A stretch of 64,000 bases of DNA from an uncultured bacterium (GCA_903823865.1 CAIJUJ010000021.1:6732-70731); one strand, 5' to 3'; shown: positions 1,975-57,191, counted from the stretch's first letter. Program-made: numbers and translations. The notes: generated from the letters alone by a model not told the origin.

Positions 1975-1997
1975 AGAAAGATTATATCATAAAGTTG

Positions 1998-10042: not shown

Positions 10043-10906
10043 TTATTGAGCTTTTTTCTGTGAGTCAGCAAGCGCATTTAGTGCATTTTGGATATCTAGG
10101 CTTGGAGTAAACAAATCTGACTTTGAACTATCCATATATATAGTCTTGATTCCGACAAGTTCTCCAGAAAGATTTAATAACAAACCACCAGAAATAAAAT
10201 TGGCAGGAACTGATGTTTCTATTGAGGATATTTTAGTAGTAACTGGTGTAGATGTAGAATTATCAGTCGGCTGGATTTGTTTAACAGATAATGTTGAGAC
10301 AATTCCTGTTGAAACTGAATCTTTTGATTCTCCTCCAATATAAATTACTGATTGTCCTAGTTTCAAATCATTTTTTGAAATAGAAACTGTATTATATTTT
10401 ACAGGATTTTTTTCGTCATTTTTAATTTTTAATAATGCTACTTGTTCTCCTGATACAGATCTTAAAACAGAAAGATCTATTAATTTATTATCTGAATTGG
10501 TAATAAAATATTTTCCACCATCTGAAATAAGATTATTATCTGTAGCAATCATGCCGTCTGTACTTATAATAACCCCTAATCCAACAAATACCATAGAATT
10601 TGATCCAGATGATGGATCTGTATTTGTTCTATAAATTCTTATCAAACTATTTTTATTTTTTTCTACAGCTCCAACTATTTGATCGTCTGTGCTTACTACT
10701 ACGGTTTCTTTAACAACTGTTTGGGTTTCTTTTGTTGGACCTGTGACTGTTTCAATTGTTCTTTCTACAACTTTATTTATTGTTTGAACCACTCCAACTG
10801 GAGCTTGGTTCATAAGTGCAACAGTAACAATACCCGTCGCAATAGACGTAACAAAACTTACCAAAAGCGCAAGTAAAATTAATTGTTGTTTGGTTAAATT
10901 CTCCAT
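10043..10906 (-). CDS. membrane-anchored trypsin-like (DegP/HtrA S1C-like) protease-domain protein, possibly degenerate
   Basis: N-terminal TM helix; 'ISGGLLLNLSGELVGI' resembles the HtrA GNSGGPL Ser region; no clear catalytic His; no PDZ domain. Confidence 0.5.
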   Translation of the reverse strand: MENLTKQQLILLALLVSFVTSIATGIVTVALMNQAPVGVVQTINKVVERTIETVTGPTKETQTVVKETVVVSTDDQIVGAVEKNKNSLIRIYRTNTDPSSGSNSMVFVGLGVIISTDGMIATDNNLISDGGKYFITNSDNKLIDLSVLRSVSGEQVALLKIKNDEKNPVKYNTVSISKNDLKLGQSVIYIGGESKDSVSTGIVSTLSVKQIQPTDNSTSTPVTTKISSIETSVPANFISGGLLLNLSGELVGIKTIYMDSSKSDLFTPSLDIQNALNALADSQKKAQ

Positions 10907-15758: not shown

Positions 15759-15831
15759 GCGTCCATAGCTCAGCTGGTAGAGCAAATCCCTCTTAAGGAT
15801 AAGGTCGTTGGTTCGACTCCAACTGGACGCA
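15759..15831 (+). tRNA. tRNA-Lys (CTT)
   Basis: Acceptor GCGTCCA/TGGACGC, anticodon loop CUCUUAA, T GTTGG-TTCGACT-CCAAC, A73. Confidence 0.8.
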
Positions 15832-16752: not shown

Positions 16753-17226
16753 ATGTTAGGAAAAGGAAAGTGTGAAAAATGCGGTGTTATTAAAAAAGTA
16801 TACAGGAACAGAAAAACGGGCAGAATAATTTGCATGAATTGCGGGAAACGCTTAAAATATCACGACCATCTGACACACGAAAGGTGCGTAAGTTGTGGAA
16901 AAATTGCGCATGTACAAGGACGTGATAAAGATGACGAACCTTTGTGCGTAAACTGTTGTACAAAAAAATACCGAAATAATTTGGAAAAGCACCAAAAATG
17001 CTCAATGTGTGGAAAGGTTGCTCCTGTCATAGAGAGAAATGAAAACGGAGAACCTATATGTCAGAGCTGTTATTTAGATAAGTATGTAAAAAATGTTTCA
17101 AAGCATGAAAAATGTGTCATGTGTGGAAACATTTTACCAGTCCATACAAGAGATGAAAATGGGAAACCTCTATGTAATAACTGTGGTTTCCTATTCAAAA
17201 AAAATAAGAAAAAACTCAATGTCTAG
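16753..17226 (+). CDS. cysteine-rich protein with four tandem CxxC-x14-18-CxxC zinc-ribbon repeats
   Basis: Strong SD 'aaggagg' 8 nt upstream; four repeats 'C.KCG...C.NCG'; own terminator. Confidence 0.6.
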   Translation: MLGKGKCEKCGVIKKVYRNRKTGRIICMNCGKRLKYHDHLTHERCVSCGKIAHVQGRDKDDEPLCVNCCTKKYRNNLEKHQKCSMCGKVAPVIERNENGEPICQSCYLDKYVKNVSKHEKCVMCGNILPVHTRDENGKPLCNNCGFLFKKNKKKLNV

Positions 17227-28738: not shown

Positions 28739-30763
28739 ATGATATATAATCAACAAAATCAAAACAATCACGGTGGAAGAAAATTCATACCAAAAAGAAA
28801 TCCTTCTTTCGGACAAAACCATTCTACAACCCACCACACAAATAGTGGATCGTTTTCTGCTACTACACATGTGGTAAATACAAACACCAAATCTTTTGTA
28901 GCTGAAAATTTAAATAGACCAGAGACATTATTGGCAAATCAAACAAAAAAGAAACTCATCTTTGTAAGAAAAAGCCCAACGCACAACAACACAAATCAAA
29001 ATAACCCACAAAAACATACAGTAAAAAAACATGGCGTCAGAAAAGTAACATCTGAGGTTGCCACAAAAAAAGAACAAGTTATTCCAGCACTTGCCGAAGG
29101 AAACATAAGAATAATTCCGCTTGGAGGTGTTGAGGGTATAGGACAAAATATGACCGCCATTGAATACGGCGATGATATAATCGTCATAGACGCTGGTATA
29201 CAGTTTAAAACAGAAGAAACTCCTGGAATTGACTACATTCTTCCAAATACCAAATATCTCGAACAAAGAAAAGGCAAAATACGTGGTTTAGTAATAACAC
29301 ACGGCCACTTGGATCACATTGGTGCAATACCTTTTGTTATGGAGTCTTTGGGTAACTGCCCAATATACACAAGAGAATTTGGTGCGCTACTTATTAAAAA
29401 ACGACAATCAGAATTCCCCCACCTTCCAGAGTTAAATATAAAAATGATAGATAAAAATACAGATTTTTTACCTATTGGCACAAATTTAAAAATTAAGTTC
29501 TTTGGTATTACCCACGCTATTCCAGATTCAGCTGGCGTAATCATAGCAACACCGCACGGAGATATTGTTTGTACCGGTGATGTGAGAGTTGATAATACTA
29601 ATGGCACACCAAAAGAAAAGGAGTTCGAACAGTACAAAATGTTTAAAGACAGAAAAGTTTTATTGCTTATGATGGATTCTACTGGAATTGAAAAACCAGG
29701 TTGGGGTATATCTGAAGACTTAGTCATTTCAACAATTGATAATATTGTAAAAAATGTCACGGGTAGAATAATCATTGCTACTTTTTCATCTCAGGTGGAA
29801 AGAATTTTACATTTTATAAGAATGTCAGAAAAATATGGTAAAAAATTAGTCATTGAAGGAAGAAGCATGAAAAATAATGTGGAAATTATTAAATTTCTAA
29901 AACTTGCTGACACAAAACATATTATTGATGTAAAAGATATGCACGACTACCCTCCTCATAAACTCATGATACTTTCAACAGGGGCACAGGGTGAAGAGTT
30001 TGCTGGTTTGATGAGAATGTCAAATAACACTCACAAAGAAATTAAATTAAACAAAACAGACACAATTATTTTGTCTTCATCAGTTATCCCAGGAAATGAA
30101 AGAGCCGTTGCAGACTTGAAAGACAATTTGTACAGACATGATTCTAAAATAATTACTTATACTGACACGGATGTTCACGCTGGTGGTCACGGAAAAAGAT
30201 CTGAACTTGAATGGATTCATAGACAAATCCCCTACAAATTCTTCATGCCATATCACGGCCATCATTATATGCTTAAAATGCATGCCGAACTTTCAATGAA
30301 TATTGGTACTCCGAAAGAAAATATTATTGTACCAGATAATGGAAGTGTAGTTGAAATAGTAGAAAATGGTTCAAAAATAAAAATGTTAAAAGAAAAAGCA
30401 CCTTCGGGAATTGTGATGGTGGACGGATTCTCTGTTGGAGATGTTCAGGAAGTTGTTATTCGTGATAGACAAATGCTTGCACAAGATGGAATGTTTGTAA
30501 TTATTGCAAGTATAGATGTAAATCTTGGTAAACTAAAAAAATCTCCAGATATTATTTCAAGAGGTTTTGTTTATTTGAAAGAATCACAAGATTTACTGAA
30601 AAACACCAGAATTATTATTAAGAGAACAATTGAAGAAGGCGCTATTGGTAAACCAATAAATTTTGATATGCTAAAGGATGCGATTACTGATAATGTCAGT
30701 AGATATTTATTCCAAGAAACAGCAAAAAAACCGATGGTGATACCTGTGGTGATTGGGGTCTAA
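28739..30763 (+). CDS. rnj: ribonuclease J (beta-CASP metallo-beta-lactamase) with ~110-aa low-complexity N-terminal extension
   Basis: 'ITHGHLDHIG' MBL motif; beta-CASP region; N-terminus rich in N/Q/H/T. Confidence 0.85.
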   Translation: MIYNQQNQNNHGGRKFIPKRNPSFGQNHSTTHHTNSGSFSATTHVVNTNTKSFVAENLNRPETLLANQTKKKLIFVRKSPTHNNTNQNNPQKHTVKKHGVRKVTSEVATKKEQVIPALAEGNIRIIPLGGVEGIGQNMTAIEYGDDIIVIDAGIQFKTEETPGIDYILPNTKYLEQRKGKIRGLVITHGHLDHIGAIPFVMESLGNCPIYTREFGALLIKKRQSEFPHLPELNIKMIDKNTDFLPIGTNLKIKFFGITHAIPDSAGVIIATPHGDIVCTGDVRVDNTNGTPKEKEFEQYKMFKDRKVLLLMMDSTGIEKPGWGISEDLVISTIDNIVKNVTGRIIIATFSSQVERILHFIRMSEKYGKKLVIEGRSMKNNVEIIKFLKLADTKHIIDVKDMHDYPPHKLMILSTGAQGEEFAGLMRMSNNTHKEIKLNKTDTIILSSSVIPGNERAVADLKDNLYRHDSKIITYTDTDVHAGGHGKRSELEWIHRQIPYKFFMPYHGHHYMLKMHAELSMNIGTPKENIIVPDNGSVVEIVENGSKIKMLKEKAPSGIVMVDGFSVGDVQEVVIRDRQMLAQDGMFVIIASIDVNLGKLKKSPDIISRGFVYLKESQDLLKNTRIIIKRTIEEGAIGKPINFDMLKDAITDNVSRYLFQETAKKPMVIPVVIGV

Positions 30764-53627: not shown

Positions 53628-54344
53628 CTATAAAACATATTTGCCCGTCTTATCATCACGAACAACTTTACCCTTTTCCATTGTTATTACCCTTTTGCCA
53701 AGTGAATCTATAACTCCTTTATTGTGGGTTGTGAGAATAATTGTGGTACCAAGATCATTTATCTTTTTCAAAATCTGAATAATTTCATTTGTGTTTATTG
53801 GGTCAAGATTCCCTGTTGGCTCATCGGCGACGATAATATCCGGCTGATTCACAATCGCACGAGCTATCGCAACTCTTTGTTTTTCTCCACCAGAAAGCTC
53901 ATGAGGAAAATTATAAGACTTGTTGGTCAAATCCACCAAATTTAATACATGTGGGACATCAGCACAAATTTCATCGTCACATCTTCCAGACATTTCCATA
54001 GCAAAAGCTATATTTTCATAAACGGTTTTGTTTGGTAAAAGTTTAAAATCTTGAAAAACTGTGCCTATTTTTCGTCTAAAATGGTGAATTTCGTGCTTTT
54101 TTAGGTGATTTACGTTTAAAGATTCATAAAAAACCTTGCCTGAGCTAGGTTTTTCTTCAGATAAAAGCATCTTTACAAGAGTTGTTTTTCCAGCCCCCGA
54201 ATGGCCAACTATGGAAACAAATTCTTTTGGTTCAATAATCAAACTCACTCCTTCCAAAGCAATTGTGCCATCTGGGTATATTTTTGTAACTTTATCAAAA
54301 ACTATCATTAGATTCATTATATCACCCAAGACGTACTGAGACAA
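53628..54344 (-). CDS. ftsE: cell-division ABC ATPase FtsE
   Basis: 'GHSGAGKTT', 'LSGGEKQR', 'ADEPTGNLD'. Confidence 0.9.
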   Translation of the reverse strand: MSQYVLGDIMNLMIVFDKVTKIYPDGTIALEGVSLIIEPKEFVSIVGHSGAGKTTLVKMLLSEEKPSSGKVFYESLNVNHLKKHEIHHFRRKIGTVFQDFKLLPNKTVYENIAFAMEMSGRCDDEICADVPHVLNLVDLTNKSYNFPHELSGGEKQRVAIARAIVNQPDIIVADEPTGNLDPINTNEIIQILKKINDLGTTIILTTHNKGVIDSLGKRVITMEKGKVVRDDKTGKYVL

Positions 54345-54386
54345 GATAAAAGGCCAGCTTTGCTCTGAAAAACTAGCCTTTTATCT

Positions 54387-55262
54387 TTAATTCAAGCTTT
54401 TCTCCGCATCAATAAATTCATTGAGCTCACCATTAAGTACTTTGTCAATATTATTTGTTTCAATATTTGTTCTATGATCCTTAATCATTTTGTATGGATG
54501 AAAAACATAGGAACGAATCTGACTCCCCCATTCTATAGACATCGTTTTACTAATATGCAAACCTGCATGTCTGGTTATATTTTCTTCTTCTTTTAATTTA
54601 AATAATTTACCTTTGAGAATTTGAACTGCTTTTTCTTTGTTTTGTAACTGCGACCTCTCTGAGGCACCGCGAACAGATATTCCTGTGGGGATATGAGTAA
54701 TTCTCACTGCAGTCTCGCGTTTATTTACATTCTGTCCTCCTGGACCACCAGCTTTTGATGTTTCAATTTTTAAATCACTTTCTGGTATTTCAATATCTCC
54801 ATCTTTTTCTATTTTTGGTACTACTTCTACTAAAGAAAAAGAAGTTTGCCTCAAATTTTTTGAATTAAACGGAGAAAGTCTTACAAGACGATGAACTCCA
54901 GATTCGTGCTTTAATAATCCATATGCGTTTGGGCCTAAAATTTCAAGAGTAATATTTCGGTAGCCGCCATGGTCATTCTCTGTTTCGTCTAATATTTTAT
55001 AATCCCAATTATTTTTAATAAAATATTTTGAATACATTTCAAACAATATCCTAGAAAAATCTTCCGCATCATCTCCACCCGCACCAGAAAAAATTGTCAT
55101 TATGGCATGTCCTTTATTATATTTATCTTTACCAAGAATTTCAGATTTTAGAAAATTAAGCTCTTTCAATATTGCTTGTGCCTTATTTTTGTCAGCCCAA
55201 AAATCCGGAGCCTGCATCTCTTTTTCTAACTCTTGAATTTTTTTATTTATTTCCTCTTTCAT
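54387..55262 (-). CDS. prfB: peptide chain release factor 2, short form without N-terminal frameshift segment
   Basis: 'SPF' tripeptide, 'GGQNVNK' GGQ motif; 291 aa; ATG 2 nt from the tRNA-Thr 3' end. Confidence 0.85.
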
Positions 55263-55263
55263 G

Positions 55264-55336
55264 AGCCACCTCCCAGGATCGAACTGGGGACCCCGTCTTT
55301 ACGAAAGACGTGCTCTACCAACTGAGCTAAGGTGGC
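55264..55336 (-). tRNA. tRNA-Thr (CGT)
   Basis: Acceptor GCCACCU/AGGUGGC, anticodon loop UUCGUAA, U73. Confidence 0.85.
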
Positions 55337-55348
55337 ACCTCCCAGCAG

Positions 55349-55421
55349 AGCCATTGACCAGGATCGAACTGGTGACCTCGTCATTACCAATGACGTGCTC
55401 TACCGACTGAGCTACAATGGC
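55349..55421 (-). tRNA. tRNA-Thr (GGT)
   Basis: Acceptor GCCAUUG/CAAUGGC, anticodon loop UUGGUAA, U73. Confidence 0.85.
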
Positions 55422-55567
55422 TTAAACACAGCTGAATATTAAGCGATTTTTGCCTTTTTTGCAAAGAAAATATTATATTTGCACCCAACATATAAAAGTT
55501 ACCGTATTAATATTTAAGGTCAGACATAATCGATTGTCTACAGTTTATTAAAATAATATTTAAATTT

Positions 55568-56380
55568 ATGAGTAATAAAAAATATGTTTCTATTGGTTTG
55601 GTATTAGCGATTATTGGATTAGGACTAATTACAGCTCCAGCATTGGCAGCGACAACATCAACAAATACACCTAGATATGCTGGCCATGGAACTGGGCCAA
55701 GAGGAGTTGGTCAAGAAATAAAACCAACAATTGTTGGGACAGTTTCTTCCATAAGTGGCAATAGTATTATTGTAACTGGAAGACAAGGTTTTGCTTTTGG
55801 TCAAAAAAATAAAGCGACATCTACACAACCAGTTTCCAGTGTCACATATACTGTTGACGCATCAAGTGCAACTGTAATGAAAAGTAATGCAACAAGTTCA
55901 GTTTCAAATATTTCTGTCGGCGATACAATACTAGTTCAAGGTACAATTAGTGGTACAAATATCACTGCAACTTTAATCCGTGATGGAATTATTAATAACG
56001 GACAAAACAGAATGCAAAATCAAAATGGAGATCAAAGAAATTTTTCTTCATCAACAATTCAGGGAAATGGACAACCTGTAATTGCCGGGACAATATCAGC
56101 AATTAATGGCTCGACAATAACTGTTACAAACAAAAGCAACGTCACCTATACAATAGATGCAACAAATGCAAAAATCACGCAAGGTCAAAATATAGTTACC
56201 ATTTCAAATATTGCAGTTGGAAATAATGTAATGATTCAGGGAACAGTAAATGGAAACTCAGTCGTAGCATCTTCAATTATCACTCAGGTTAATCAGACAA
56301 ACACTAATGCTCCAGCAAAAAAGCCCGTAGGCTTCTTTGGAGCGATTGGTAATTTCTTTAAGAATTTGTTTGGGTTTTAA
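55568..56380 (+). CDS. secreted beta-rich repeat protein (three ~70-aa repeats, DUF5666-like)
   Basis: Signal peptide 'LAIIGLGLITAPALA'; repeated 'VxGTxSxIxGxxIxVT...TYTxDA' units. Confidence 0.5.
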   Translation: MSNKKYVSIGLVLAIIGLGLITAPALAATTSTNTPRYAGHGTGPRGVGQEIKPTIVGTVSSISGNSIIVTGRQGFAFGQKNKATSTQPVSSVTYTVDASSATVMKSNATSSVSNISVGDTILVQGTISGTNITATLIRDGIINNGQNRMQNQNGDQRNFSSSTIQGNGQPVIAGTISAINGSTITVTNKSNVTYTIDATNAKITQGQNIVTISNIAVGNNVMIQGTVNGNSVVASSIITQVNQTNTNAPAKKPVGFFGAIGNFFKNLFGF

Positions 56381-57117: not shown

Positions 57118-57191
57118 CGCGGCTGGCCGGATTCGAACCGGTGACCTCTCCCGTGACAGGGGAGCGCTCTAACCAACTGAGCTACAACCGC
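57118..57191 (-). tRNA. tRNA-Asp (GTC)
   Basis: Acceptor GCGGUUG/CAGCCGC, anticodon loop CUGUCAC, G73. Confidence 0.85.

Follow-up and report, generated by a model that had tools for sequence, protein, structure and literature searches.

A short RF2 gene abutting a tRNA-Thr gene in Paceibacteria: a candidate for leaderless mRNA formation by tRNA processing

Introduction

In animal mitochondrial DNA the tRNA genes punctuate the transcript. The mRNAs are excised by RNase P and RNase Z/ELAC2, and they are leaderless or have leaders of 0-3 nt. Co-transcription of tRNA genes with a translation-factor gene is found in the thrU-tyrU-glyT-thrT-tufB unit of E. coli, which includes tRNA-Thr; a spacer of ~100 nt with a normal Shine-Dalgarno (SD) sequence lies there between tRNA and ORF. 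Leaderless mRNAs can also derive from promoters, as in Mycobacterium, Streptomyces, Deinococcus and lambda cI. The geometry of such an mRNA is a -10 box 6-9 nt before the ATG.

RF2, the product of prfB, recognises stop codons with the tripeptide SPF, RF1 has PxT instead. An autoregulated prfB gene contains an in-frame UGA after CUU near codon 25, with an SD-like element before it. The factor PrfH is ~200 aa long, is without domain 1, has an altered codon-recognition region and is paired with rtcB. In a survey of 12,753 genomes the prfB frameshift was absent from all Actinomycetota, Mycoplasmatota and Thermotogota, and its loss was linked to high TGA usage; Patescibacteria go unmentioned in this survey (PMC12421855).

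Actinobacteria and Deinococcus are well known for their leaderless mRNAs (PMC9031893). To be translated, such an mRNA must have a 5' phosphate, and its AUG must be close to the 5' end if not at it; translation declines as the AUG moves inward, and in model bacteria a short extension at the 5' end is enough to lower it (review PMC9031893).

Here we describe a bacterial prfB gene separated by a single nucleotide from a tRNA-Thr gene. As in mitochondrial tRNA punctuation, the tRNA is 0 to a few nt from the start codon, there is no promoter and probably no usable SD sequence between them and the 5' end of the presumably leaderless mRNA would come from tRNA 3' processing. The locus differs from the mitochondrial case in lying on a bacterial chromosome, where the majority of genes have a promoter to themselves; the arrangement is confined to some of the tRNA-gene junctions, and the cleavage is putative. 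The locus shares with the E. coli tufB unit the combination of tRNAs and a translation-factor gene, but its spacer is 1 nt.

Results and Discussion

Anatomy of the tRNA-prfB junction

The window, by which we mean the whole 64,000-nt stretch of DNA that was analysed, comes from a tiny-genome bacterium of the Paceibacteria/CPR, and the prfB unit is on its minus strand (Table 1). A tRNA gene directly flanks prfB. On this strand the discriminator of tRNA-Thr(CGU) (T/U at 55264) is followed by one C (55263) and then by the prfB ATG (55262-55260). The sequence across the junction is ...GGGAGGTGGCT-C-ATGAAAGAGG, a longer reading of it is ...CCTGGGAGGTGGCT-C-ATGAAAGAGGAA.... The Rfam match to the tRNA ends on the discriminator and ARAGORN ends it one base further, at 55263. 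The initial annotation had placed the prfB ATG next to the 3' end of tRNA-Thr(CGT), and both the Rfam match and the sequence bear this out.

Table 1. Features of the tRNA-Thr-prfB unit and the start of ftsE, in order of the minus strand
Feature	Position	Strand	Evidence and remarks
Putative promoter of the tRNA-tRNA-prfB unit	55436-55464	-	-35 TTGCAA 55464-55459, 17-nt spacer, -10 TAATAT 55441-55436; phylogenetic footprinting, candidate promoter role
tRNA-Thr(GGU)	55349-55421	-	First gene of the unit; Rfam 70.2 bits; ARAGORN
Inter-tRNA spacer, 12 nt, CUGCUGGGAGGU	55337-55348	-	Sequence reading; a promoter would not fit
tRNA-Thr(CGU)	55264-55336	-	Acceptor stem GCCACCU/AGGUGGC, discriminator U 55264; Rfam 63 bits; acceptor, anticodon and T stems co-vary in relatives
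SD-like GGAGGUG in T-stem and acceptor 3' strand	55267-55273	-	4 nt (GGAGG core 6 nt) before AUG
Single junction nucleotide C, tRNA gene position 74	55263-55263	-	Next base A is the A of AUG
prfB, short RF2, 291 aa	54387-55262	-	Two-helix domain 1, no +1 frameshift site, TAA stop; profile searches, alignment, AlphaFold model
Terminator-like hairpin	54343-54387	-	19-bp stem, 7-nt loop; begins at last base of prfB stop codon; fold energy -30.5 kcal/mol, z = -4.1
ftsE promoter and leaderless-type start	54308-54344	-	TTGTCT, 17 nt, TGaTATAAT, 7 nt, ATG 54308; scan 10/12 with TG extension

The prfB frame is shut upstream by a TAA (55301-55299) within the anticodon loop of tRNA-Thr(CGU), and there is no ATG, GTG or TTG in this frame between that TAA and the ATG at 55262. 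The in-frame TAA therefore rules out a prfB start further upstream, and no exon or frame that could encode a longer N-terminus was found there. The sole upstream ORF to end at the junction (55390-55259, ...GGC UCA UGA) is wholly inside the two tRNAs and is a by-product of ATGA holding both ATG and TGA. Its terminal UCA-UGA is not a +1 slippery site, it was rejected as a frameshift cassette.

Neither the sequence nor a promoter scan gave a promoter-like or terminator-like site at the tRNA-prfB junction. Upstream of the tRNA pair, the window and one related locus (L002) share a 31-nt block, TTGCAAAAAAGGCAAAAATCGCTTAATATTC (TTGCAA-N17-TAATAT), without any difference, and the flanks of this block are diverged; another relative (L001) has TTGAAA-17-TATTAT at the corresponding place. 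The candidate promoter in the window scores 8/12, which is under the threshold of the generic promoter scan, and hence was not flagged by it. Transcription would be expected to start ~8 nt before the first tRNA. Upstream of the tRNA clusters -10 boxes are found in 12 of 23 loci, a count that the AT-rich DNA makes uninformative. We infer that promoter, tRNA-Thr(GGU), tRNA-Thr(CGU), prfB and terminator form one co-transcribed unit.

The GGGAGGU found in the 3' T-stem/acceptor arm of the second tRNA recurs in the spacer between the two tRNA genes, which may reflect chance or a past duplication.

Conservation in related genomes

The comparison set consisted of 80 related genomic loci (L001-L080) and the window, 81 in all. 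The usual upstream neighbour of prfB in these loci is tRNA-Thr(CGT), and the prfB ATG is 1-13 nt past a tRNA-Thr discriminator in 23 of them, including one (L011) in which it follows the GGT isoacceptor. The abutting relatives have 56-88% protein identity. Six loci, with identity to the window down to 60%, share the junction GGCUC-AUG (the window, L002, L010, L021, L030 and L043), L039 has GGCUCCA-AUG and the remaining abutting loci have short A/U-rich spacers with no SD sequence. The prfB start is ATG in 23/23 abutting loci. The tRNA stems co-vary among loci, examples are GCCACCU/AGGUGGC, GCCAAAG/CUUUGGC and GCCGACC/GGUCGGC, which indicates selection acting on the tRNA there. Recurrence in 23 of 81 loci, the window included, argues that the abutment of tRNA and prfB ATG is not chance.

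The closest relative with a gap (L001, 125 nt) reads GGCTC-ATGGAA, followed by a 121-nt element (L001:2840-2960) and then by ATGGAA repeated. Its ends are inverted repeats of 14 nt that match perfectly (ATCCCGTACGAAAT / ATTTCGTACGGGAT), and a TATAAT lies inside it. The arrangement resembles a MITE-like insertion into a tRNA-prfB junction that was ancestrally abutting.

Other genes in the related loci are placed in the same manner. ORFs other than prfB, 112-334 aa long, have an ATG 1-7 nt past a tRNA discriminator in L012, L048, L073 and L078 (Thr CGT), in L028 (Thr GGT) and in L031 (Asp). Judged from these loci, the tRNA-then-ATG layout is not peculiar to prfB in the clade.

Leaderless geometry of prfB and of window genes

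A -10 box was defined as a match to TATAAT at 5/6 positions at least, 6-9 nt before the ATG for prfB loci and 5-10 nt before the start for window ORFs. Such a box precedes prfB in 31 of the 58 non-abutting loci and in none of the 23 abutting loci, the window included (Fisher p = 1.5e-6); the background for a box 6-9 nt upstream is 2.6% of all ATGs. Typical boxes in the non-abutting loci are TGnTATAAT or TATACT, several more loci have weaker boxes at the same distance, and an SD-like sequence upstream of prfB is essentially absent from the non-abutting loci. A promoter inside the tRNA was considered for the abutting loci and rejected, the last 15 nt of the tRNA contain no -10-like hexamer in any of the 23. 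The distance from the first Met to the xDFW motif has a median of 20 residues in abutting and 21.5 in non-abutting loci, and the median protein length is 294 aa in both. The two classes thus agree in the length of the N-terminus, which identifies the abutting ATG as the homologous start.

The same geometry is common in the window. A -10 box is found 5-10 nt before the first start codon of 18 of the 64 long ORFs, against a background of 5.3% (p = 3e-10). ATGs with a TATAAT-like box at the leaderless distance include those at 10906, 12444, 31983, 35013, 44359, 53611 (ftsX; TATAAT, 6 nt, ATG) and 54308 (ftsE). A strong SD sequence (GGAGG 8 nt upstream) was seen at two window genes only, at 16753 and 21139. 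These counts suggest that the organism makes heavy use of leaderless initiation and that its genes often have a promoter each.

The prfB genes of at least 31 related genomes, together with ftsE and ftsX, thus resemble the promoter-derived leaderless genes of Mycobacterium, Streptomyces, Deinococcus and lambda cI, which have a 5'-end AUG, no SD sequence and a -10 box 6-9 nt upstream. The window prfB differs from these in that its 5' end would be a processed 5'-monophosphate and not a triphosphate start, perhaps with one extra C.

An alternative arrangement to the prfB junction is seen at tRNA-Arg(CCT) (1998-2069). Its trailer CAACTTTATGATATAATCTTTCTATGAAC (1975-1997, minus strand) contains TGaTATAAT with an ATG 6 nt later, a promoter-type leaderless start packed behind a tRNA.

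The tRNA 3' end and its processing

A C follows the discriminator (C74) in 15/15 tRNA genes of the window and in 152/159 of the related loci. The window genes with C74 include those at 1564-1636, 15759-15831 and 57118-57191. The commonest pair at positions 74-75 is CA (92 cases), the full CCA is encoded in 41 cases only. This conserved N73-C-A trailer is unusual, and it may be a determinant of 3' processing. The smallest spacer between tRNA and prfB, 1 nt, is exactly what preserves C74, and in the string U-C-A-U-G that begins with the discriminator the A of the usual CA trailer doubles as the A of the start codon.

The initial annotation attributed the prfB mRNA to processing by RNase Z and RNase P. 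The comparison of loci supports processing of the tRNA, but RNase Z is just one candidate for the 3' cut. RNase Z cuts directly after the discriminator and a C at that place suppresses the Bacillus-type enzyme, whereas the Thermotoga and archaeal enzymes cut after CCA (PMC7479834). A search of the 64-kb window for the HxHxDH motif found no RNase Z gene, the sole match was RNase J. The latter is the only tRNA/mRNA nuclease identified in the window (28739-30763, plus strand, 674 aa). Its family match starts at residue 123, which leaves an N-terminal extension of ~120 aa.

A short RF2 with a reduced domain 1

The prfB product matches the PCRF (PF03462, E = 3.5e-40) and RF-1 (PF00472, E = 2.1e-36) domains. 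The best NCBIfam match is prfB (TIGR00020) at 357.2 bits, 120 bits over prfA. This is below the curated cut-off of 370 bits because the domain-1 segment (profile positions 1-108) is missing; the match spans positions 109-350 of 353 only. SPF is at residues S130-P131-F132 (54875-54867) and GGQ at G175-G176-Q177 (54740-54732), so that both motifs are intact as the initial annotation had stated, and they do not vary among 33 relatives. With these motifs the protein is a genuine RF2. Two other identities were rejected. PrfH scored 94.7 bits against a cut-off of 166.65, the protein has SPF and the neighbours of the gene are ftsE and ftsX, not rtcB; ArfB was rejected by profile search.

Aligned with B. 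subtilis RF2 (PDB 9fy1), residues 7-54 correspond to 31-78 and residues from ~44 onward to 117 onward. Domain 1 is therefore missing both the N-terminal ~24-30 aa and ~50 aa internally. Residues 1-44 alone precede domain 2, compared with ~105-115 aa in the full-length helical domain 1. In an AlphaFold model (pLDDT 71.7) domain 1 consists of two helices, residues 2-16 and 25-44, followed by the domain-2 sheet. The claim in the annotation that ~25 N-terminal codons are absent was thus right for the N-terminus but understated the loss, as profile and alignment show that a further ~50 residues of domain 1 are gone.

Domain 1 is cut to two helices throughout the clade. The short RF2 is a large family of ~290 aa proteins in Patescibacteria/Paceibacteria and is restricted to that clade. 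After clustering at 50%, few representatives have the collinear ~295-aa form and the remainder are 330-370 aa. Canonical RF2 proteins (E. coli, B. subtilis, T. thermophilus; PDB 1gqe, 9fy1, 4v5e) share with the window RF2 the PCRF and RF-1 domains, SPF, GGQ and 40-60% identity over domains 2-4. The window RF2 is ~75 residues shorter than these, with a two-helix domain 1 and no CUU-UGA frameshift. A search for an RF1 paralogue in the window and related loci, which would tell whether the reduction of domain 1 is general, found none. If this protein works as proposed, RF2 would function with a minimal domain 1.

Absence of the frameshift cassette

The window prfB is one uninterrupted ORF from the ATG. 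A segment homologous to the CUU-UGA cassette, the +1 frameshift site, is absent from the window and from all 80 related loci. The alignment with related RF2 genes that had been suggested at the outset thus finds the cassette missing in 81/81, and the claim that the autoregulatory segment was lost holds for every gene compared.

The frameshift-less lineages described before (Actinomycetota, Mycoplasmatota and Thermotogota; PMC12421855) share with the window a prfB that is in frame and has neither an SD-like sequence nor a slippery site nor a UGA cassette. In those lineages, however, the loss usually goes with high TGA usage, whereas here TGA is little used (5/54 stops, at 32.6% GC) and the whole N-terminal segment is deleted, not merely in frame. 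An RF2 that functions without frameshift autoregulation in a low-GC, low-TGA genome would run counter to the association of high TGA usage with loss of the frameshift that has been reported (PMC12421855). This low-GC genome with few TGA stops is an exception of the Mycoplasmatota type to that association. Taken alone the loss of the frameshift is ordinary, the interesting part is the conserved tRNA-AUG junction in a lineage with leaderless geometry.

A model for the prfB mRNA and its alternatives

The recurrent abutment of tRNA and prfB suggests that, in much the same way as in mitochondria, a leaderless mRNA gains its 5' end when the tRNA is excised. A promoter upstream of tRNA-Thr(GGU) would drive a precursor comprising tRNA-Thr(GGU), tRNA-Thr(CGU), prfB and the terminator. 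RNase P would cut the tRNA 5' ends, and an endonuclease acting at the 3' end of tRNA-Thr(CGU), after U73 or the conserved C74, would free the tRNA and make the 5'-monophosphate end of prfB together. The message would begin with pC-AUG... if cleavage falls after U73 and with pAUG... if it falls after C74. The mRNA would then be translated without a Shine-Dalgarno sequence by the leaderless route (5'-terminal AUG, 70S-type) that is seemingly used for many genes of the lineage. The tRNA processing site would in this way take the role that the transcription start 6-9 nt past the -10 box has for prfB in related genomes.

We consider it fairly probable that tRNA 3' processing replaces the transcription start and gives a prfB mRNA with a leader of 0-1 nt, a reading for which we infer co-transcription, cleavage position, enzyme and leaderless translation. 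It builds on what was observed, namely the anatomy of the junction and its conservation, the reduction of domain 1, the lack of a promoter or of another start, and a leaderless geometry both in relatives and in genes nearby. The precursor of two tRNAs and prfB, processed to a (near) leaderless message, was proposed in the initial annotation; the conserved abutment, the lack of a box in abutting loci, the equal N-termini and the leaderless geometry in the window lend this comparative support. Several points count against the model. Cleavage at N73 would leave leaders of 1-13 nt in the abutting loci, a C follows the discriminator and the window has no RNase Z gene, a 5'-monophosphate mRNA would be a substrate of the RNase J encoded in the window, and GGAGGUG is at ideal spacing in 5/7 of the spacer-1 junctions.

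The last point bears on the statement in the annotation that there is no room for a promoter or an SD sequence. This holds for the promoter, but the acceptor arm contains GGAGGUG (55273-55267), a perfect SD sequence 4-6 nt before the AUG. It might serve as the SD of prfB on the unprocessed precursor, so that tRNA and RF2 would be alternative fates of each transcript. The two window genes with GGAGG 8 nt upstream indicate that the ribosome is probably able to use such a sequence, and SD-like acceptors are weakly enriched at spacer-1 junctions (5/7 versus 15/54, p = 0.03, uncorrected and with loci that are not phylogenetically independent). We nevertheless regard this minor alternative as quite unlikely. 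The GGAGGUG would be sequestered, since it forms a strand of the acceptor stem, which has 7 bp, is G/C-rich and stacks on the T arm. The GCCACCU acceptor also occurs in 10 tRNA-Thr(CGT) genes that abut nothing. An SD-like sequence is missing from 17/27 abutting junctions (for example L021, CUUUGGCUC-AUG, and L051, L057, L059 and L068), and SD-like acceptors and abutment have no overall association (p = 0.59). The prfB genes of non-abutting relatives have no SD, and SD sequences are rare in the window. As an SD sequence the GGAGGUG is probably incidental.

Maturation and translation could also compete for the precursor. The tRNA 3' end would then be matured by a cut inside prfB and trimming by a 3'-exonuclease, destroying the message, and RF2 would come from escaping precursors through SD-independent internal initiation beside the tRNA. 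C74 is expected to hinder canonical RNase Z, and bacterial tRNAs with an encoded CCA are usually matured exonucleolytically (PMC7479834); CCA is encoded in the abutting loci L039, L057 and L058. However, an essential factor would hang on the failure of processing, and a folded tRNA right before the AUG would collide with the 30S subunit. A defined 5' end agrees better with a conserved spacer of the minimal length, 1 nt, and with starts that are ATG throughout, and relatives show a clear leaderless geometry for prfB. Such competition therefore seems unlikely to us. That translation starts at a downstream codon such as Met16, where there is a second in-frame ATG (55217), and that the tRNA-adjacent ATG is coincidental, is very improbable. 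One relative (L002) has no Met there (...ELESRIQSPDF), residues 1-15 keep their length and character across the family and neither a promoter nor an SD sequence precedes 55217. The N-terminal length is moreover equal in relatives in which the start is independently fixed by a -10 box, and the Met16 start was rejected on conservation. The genomes are metagenome-assembled, and an assembly or binning artefact might have joined a tRNA to a 5'-truncated prfB. The junction recurs, amid sequences that have diverged, in many assemblies made independently in different studies, and the short RF2 is a large family of ~290 aa, so this explanation is effectively refuted and its probability negligible.

The model in which tRNA processing makes the prfB 5' end can be extended to a joint reading, which we put forward tentatively and with less than even confidence. 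Paceibacteria might use a bacterial form of tRNA punctuation, possibly with the cut after C74, to make exact 5'-pAUG mRNAs for prfB and several other genes. Initiation would be mostly SD-free, RF2 synthesis would be coupled to transcription and processing of the tRNA, replacing the lost frameshift autoregulation, and RF2 would work with a two-helix domain 1.

A literature search found mentions of tRNA punctuation for organelles only. For bacteria it turned up no account of leaderless mRNAs generated by tRNAs, nor one of a dominance of leaderless initiation in CPR or of a short RF2 in Patescibacteria; the coverage of this search was incomplete and it makes novelty suggestive only. If the model is true, tRNA excision as a source of leaderless mRNA, which has until now been a mark of mitochondria, would also operate in a large free-standing bacterial radiation, and Paceibacteria would join the short list of lineages that lean heavily on leaderless initiation. 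For gene calling in CPR, starts that abut tRNAs or lie 6-9 nt past a -10 box would be predictable from sequence.

Neighbouring genes

Profile searches identify ftsE and then ftsX downstream of prfB. The FtsE profile match starts at the Met of the ATG at 54308, and the true ftsE start is the fourth candidate in its ORF. A divergent ORF (55568-56380, plus strand, 270 aa) has no NCBIfam match. It has a signal-peptide-like N-terminus and repeated segments rich in Ser/Thr/Asn/Gly, such as ...ISGNSIIVTG..., ...ISGTNITATL... and ...INGSTITVTN....
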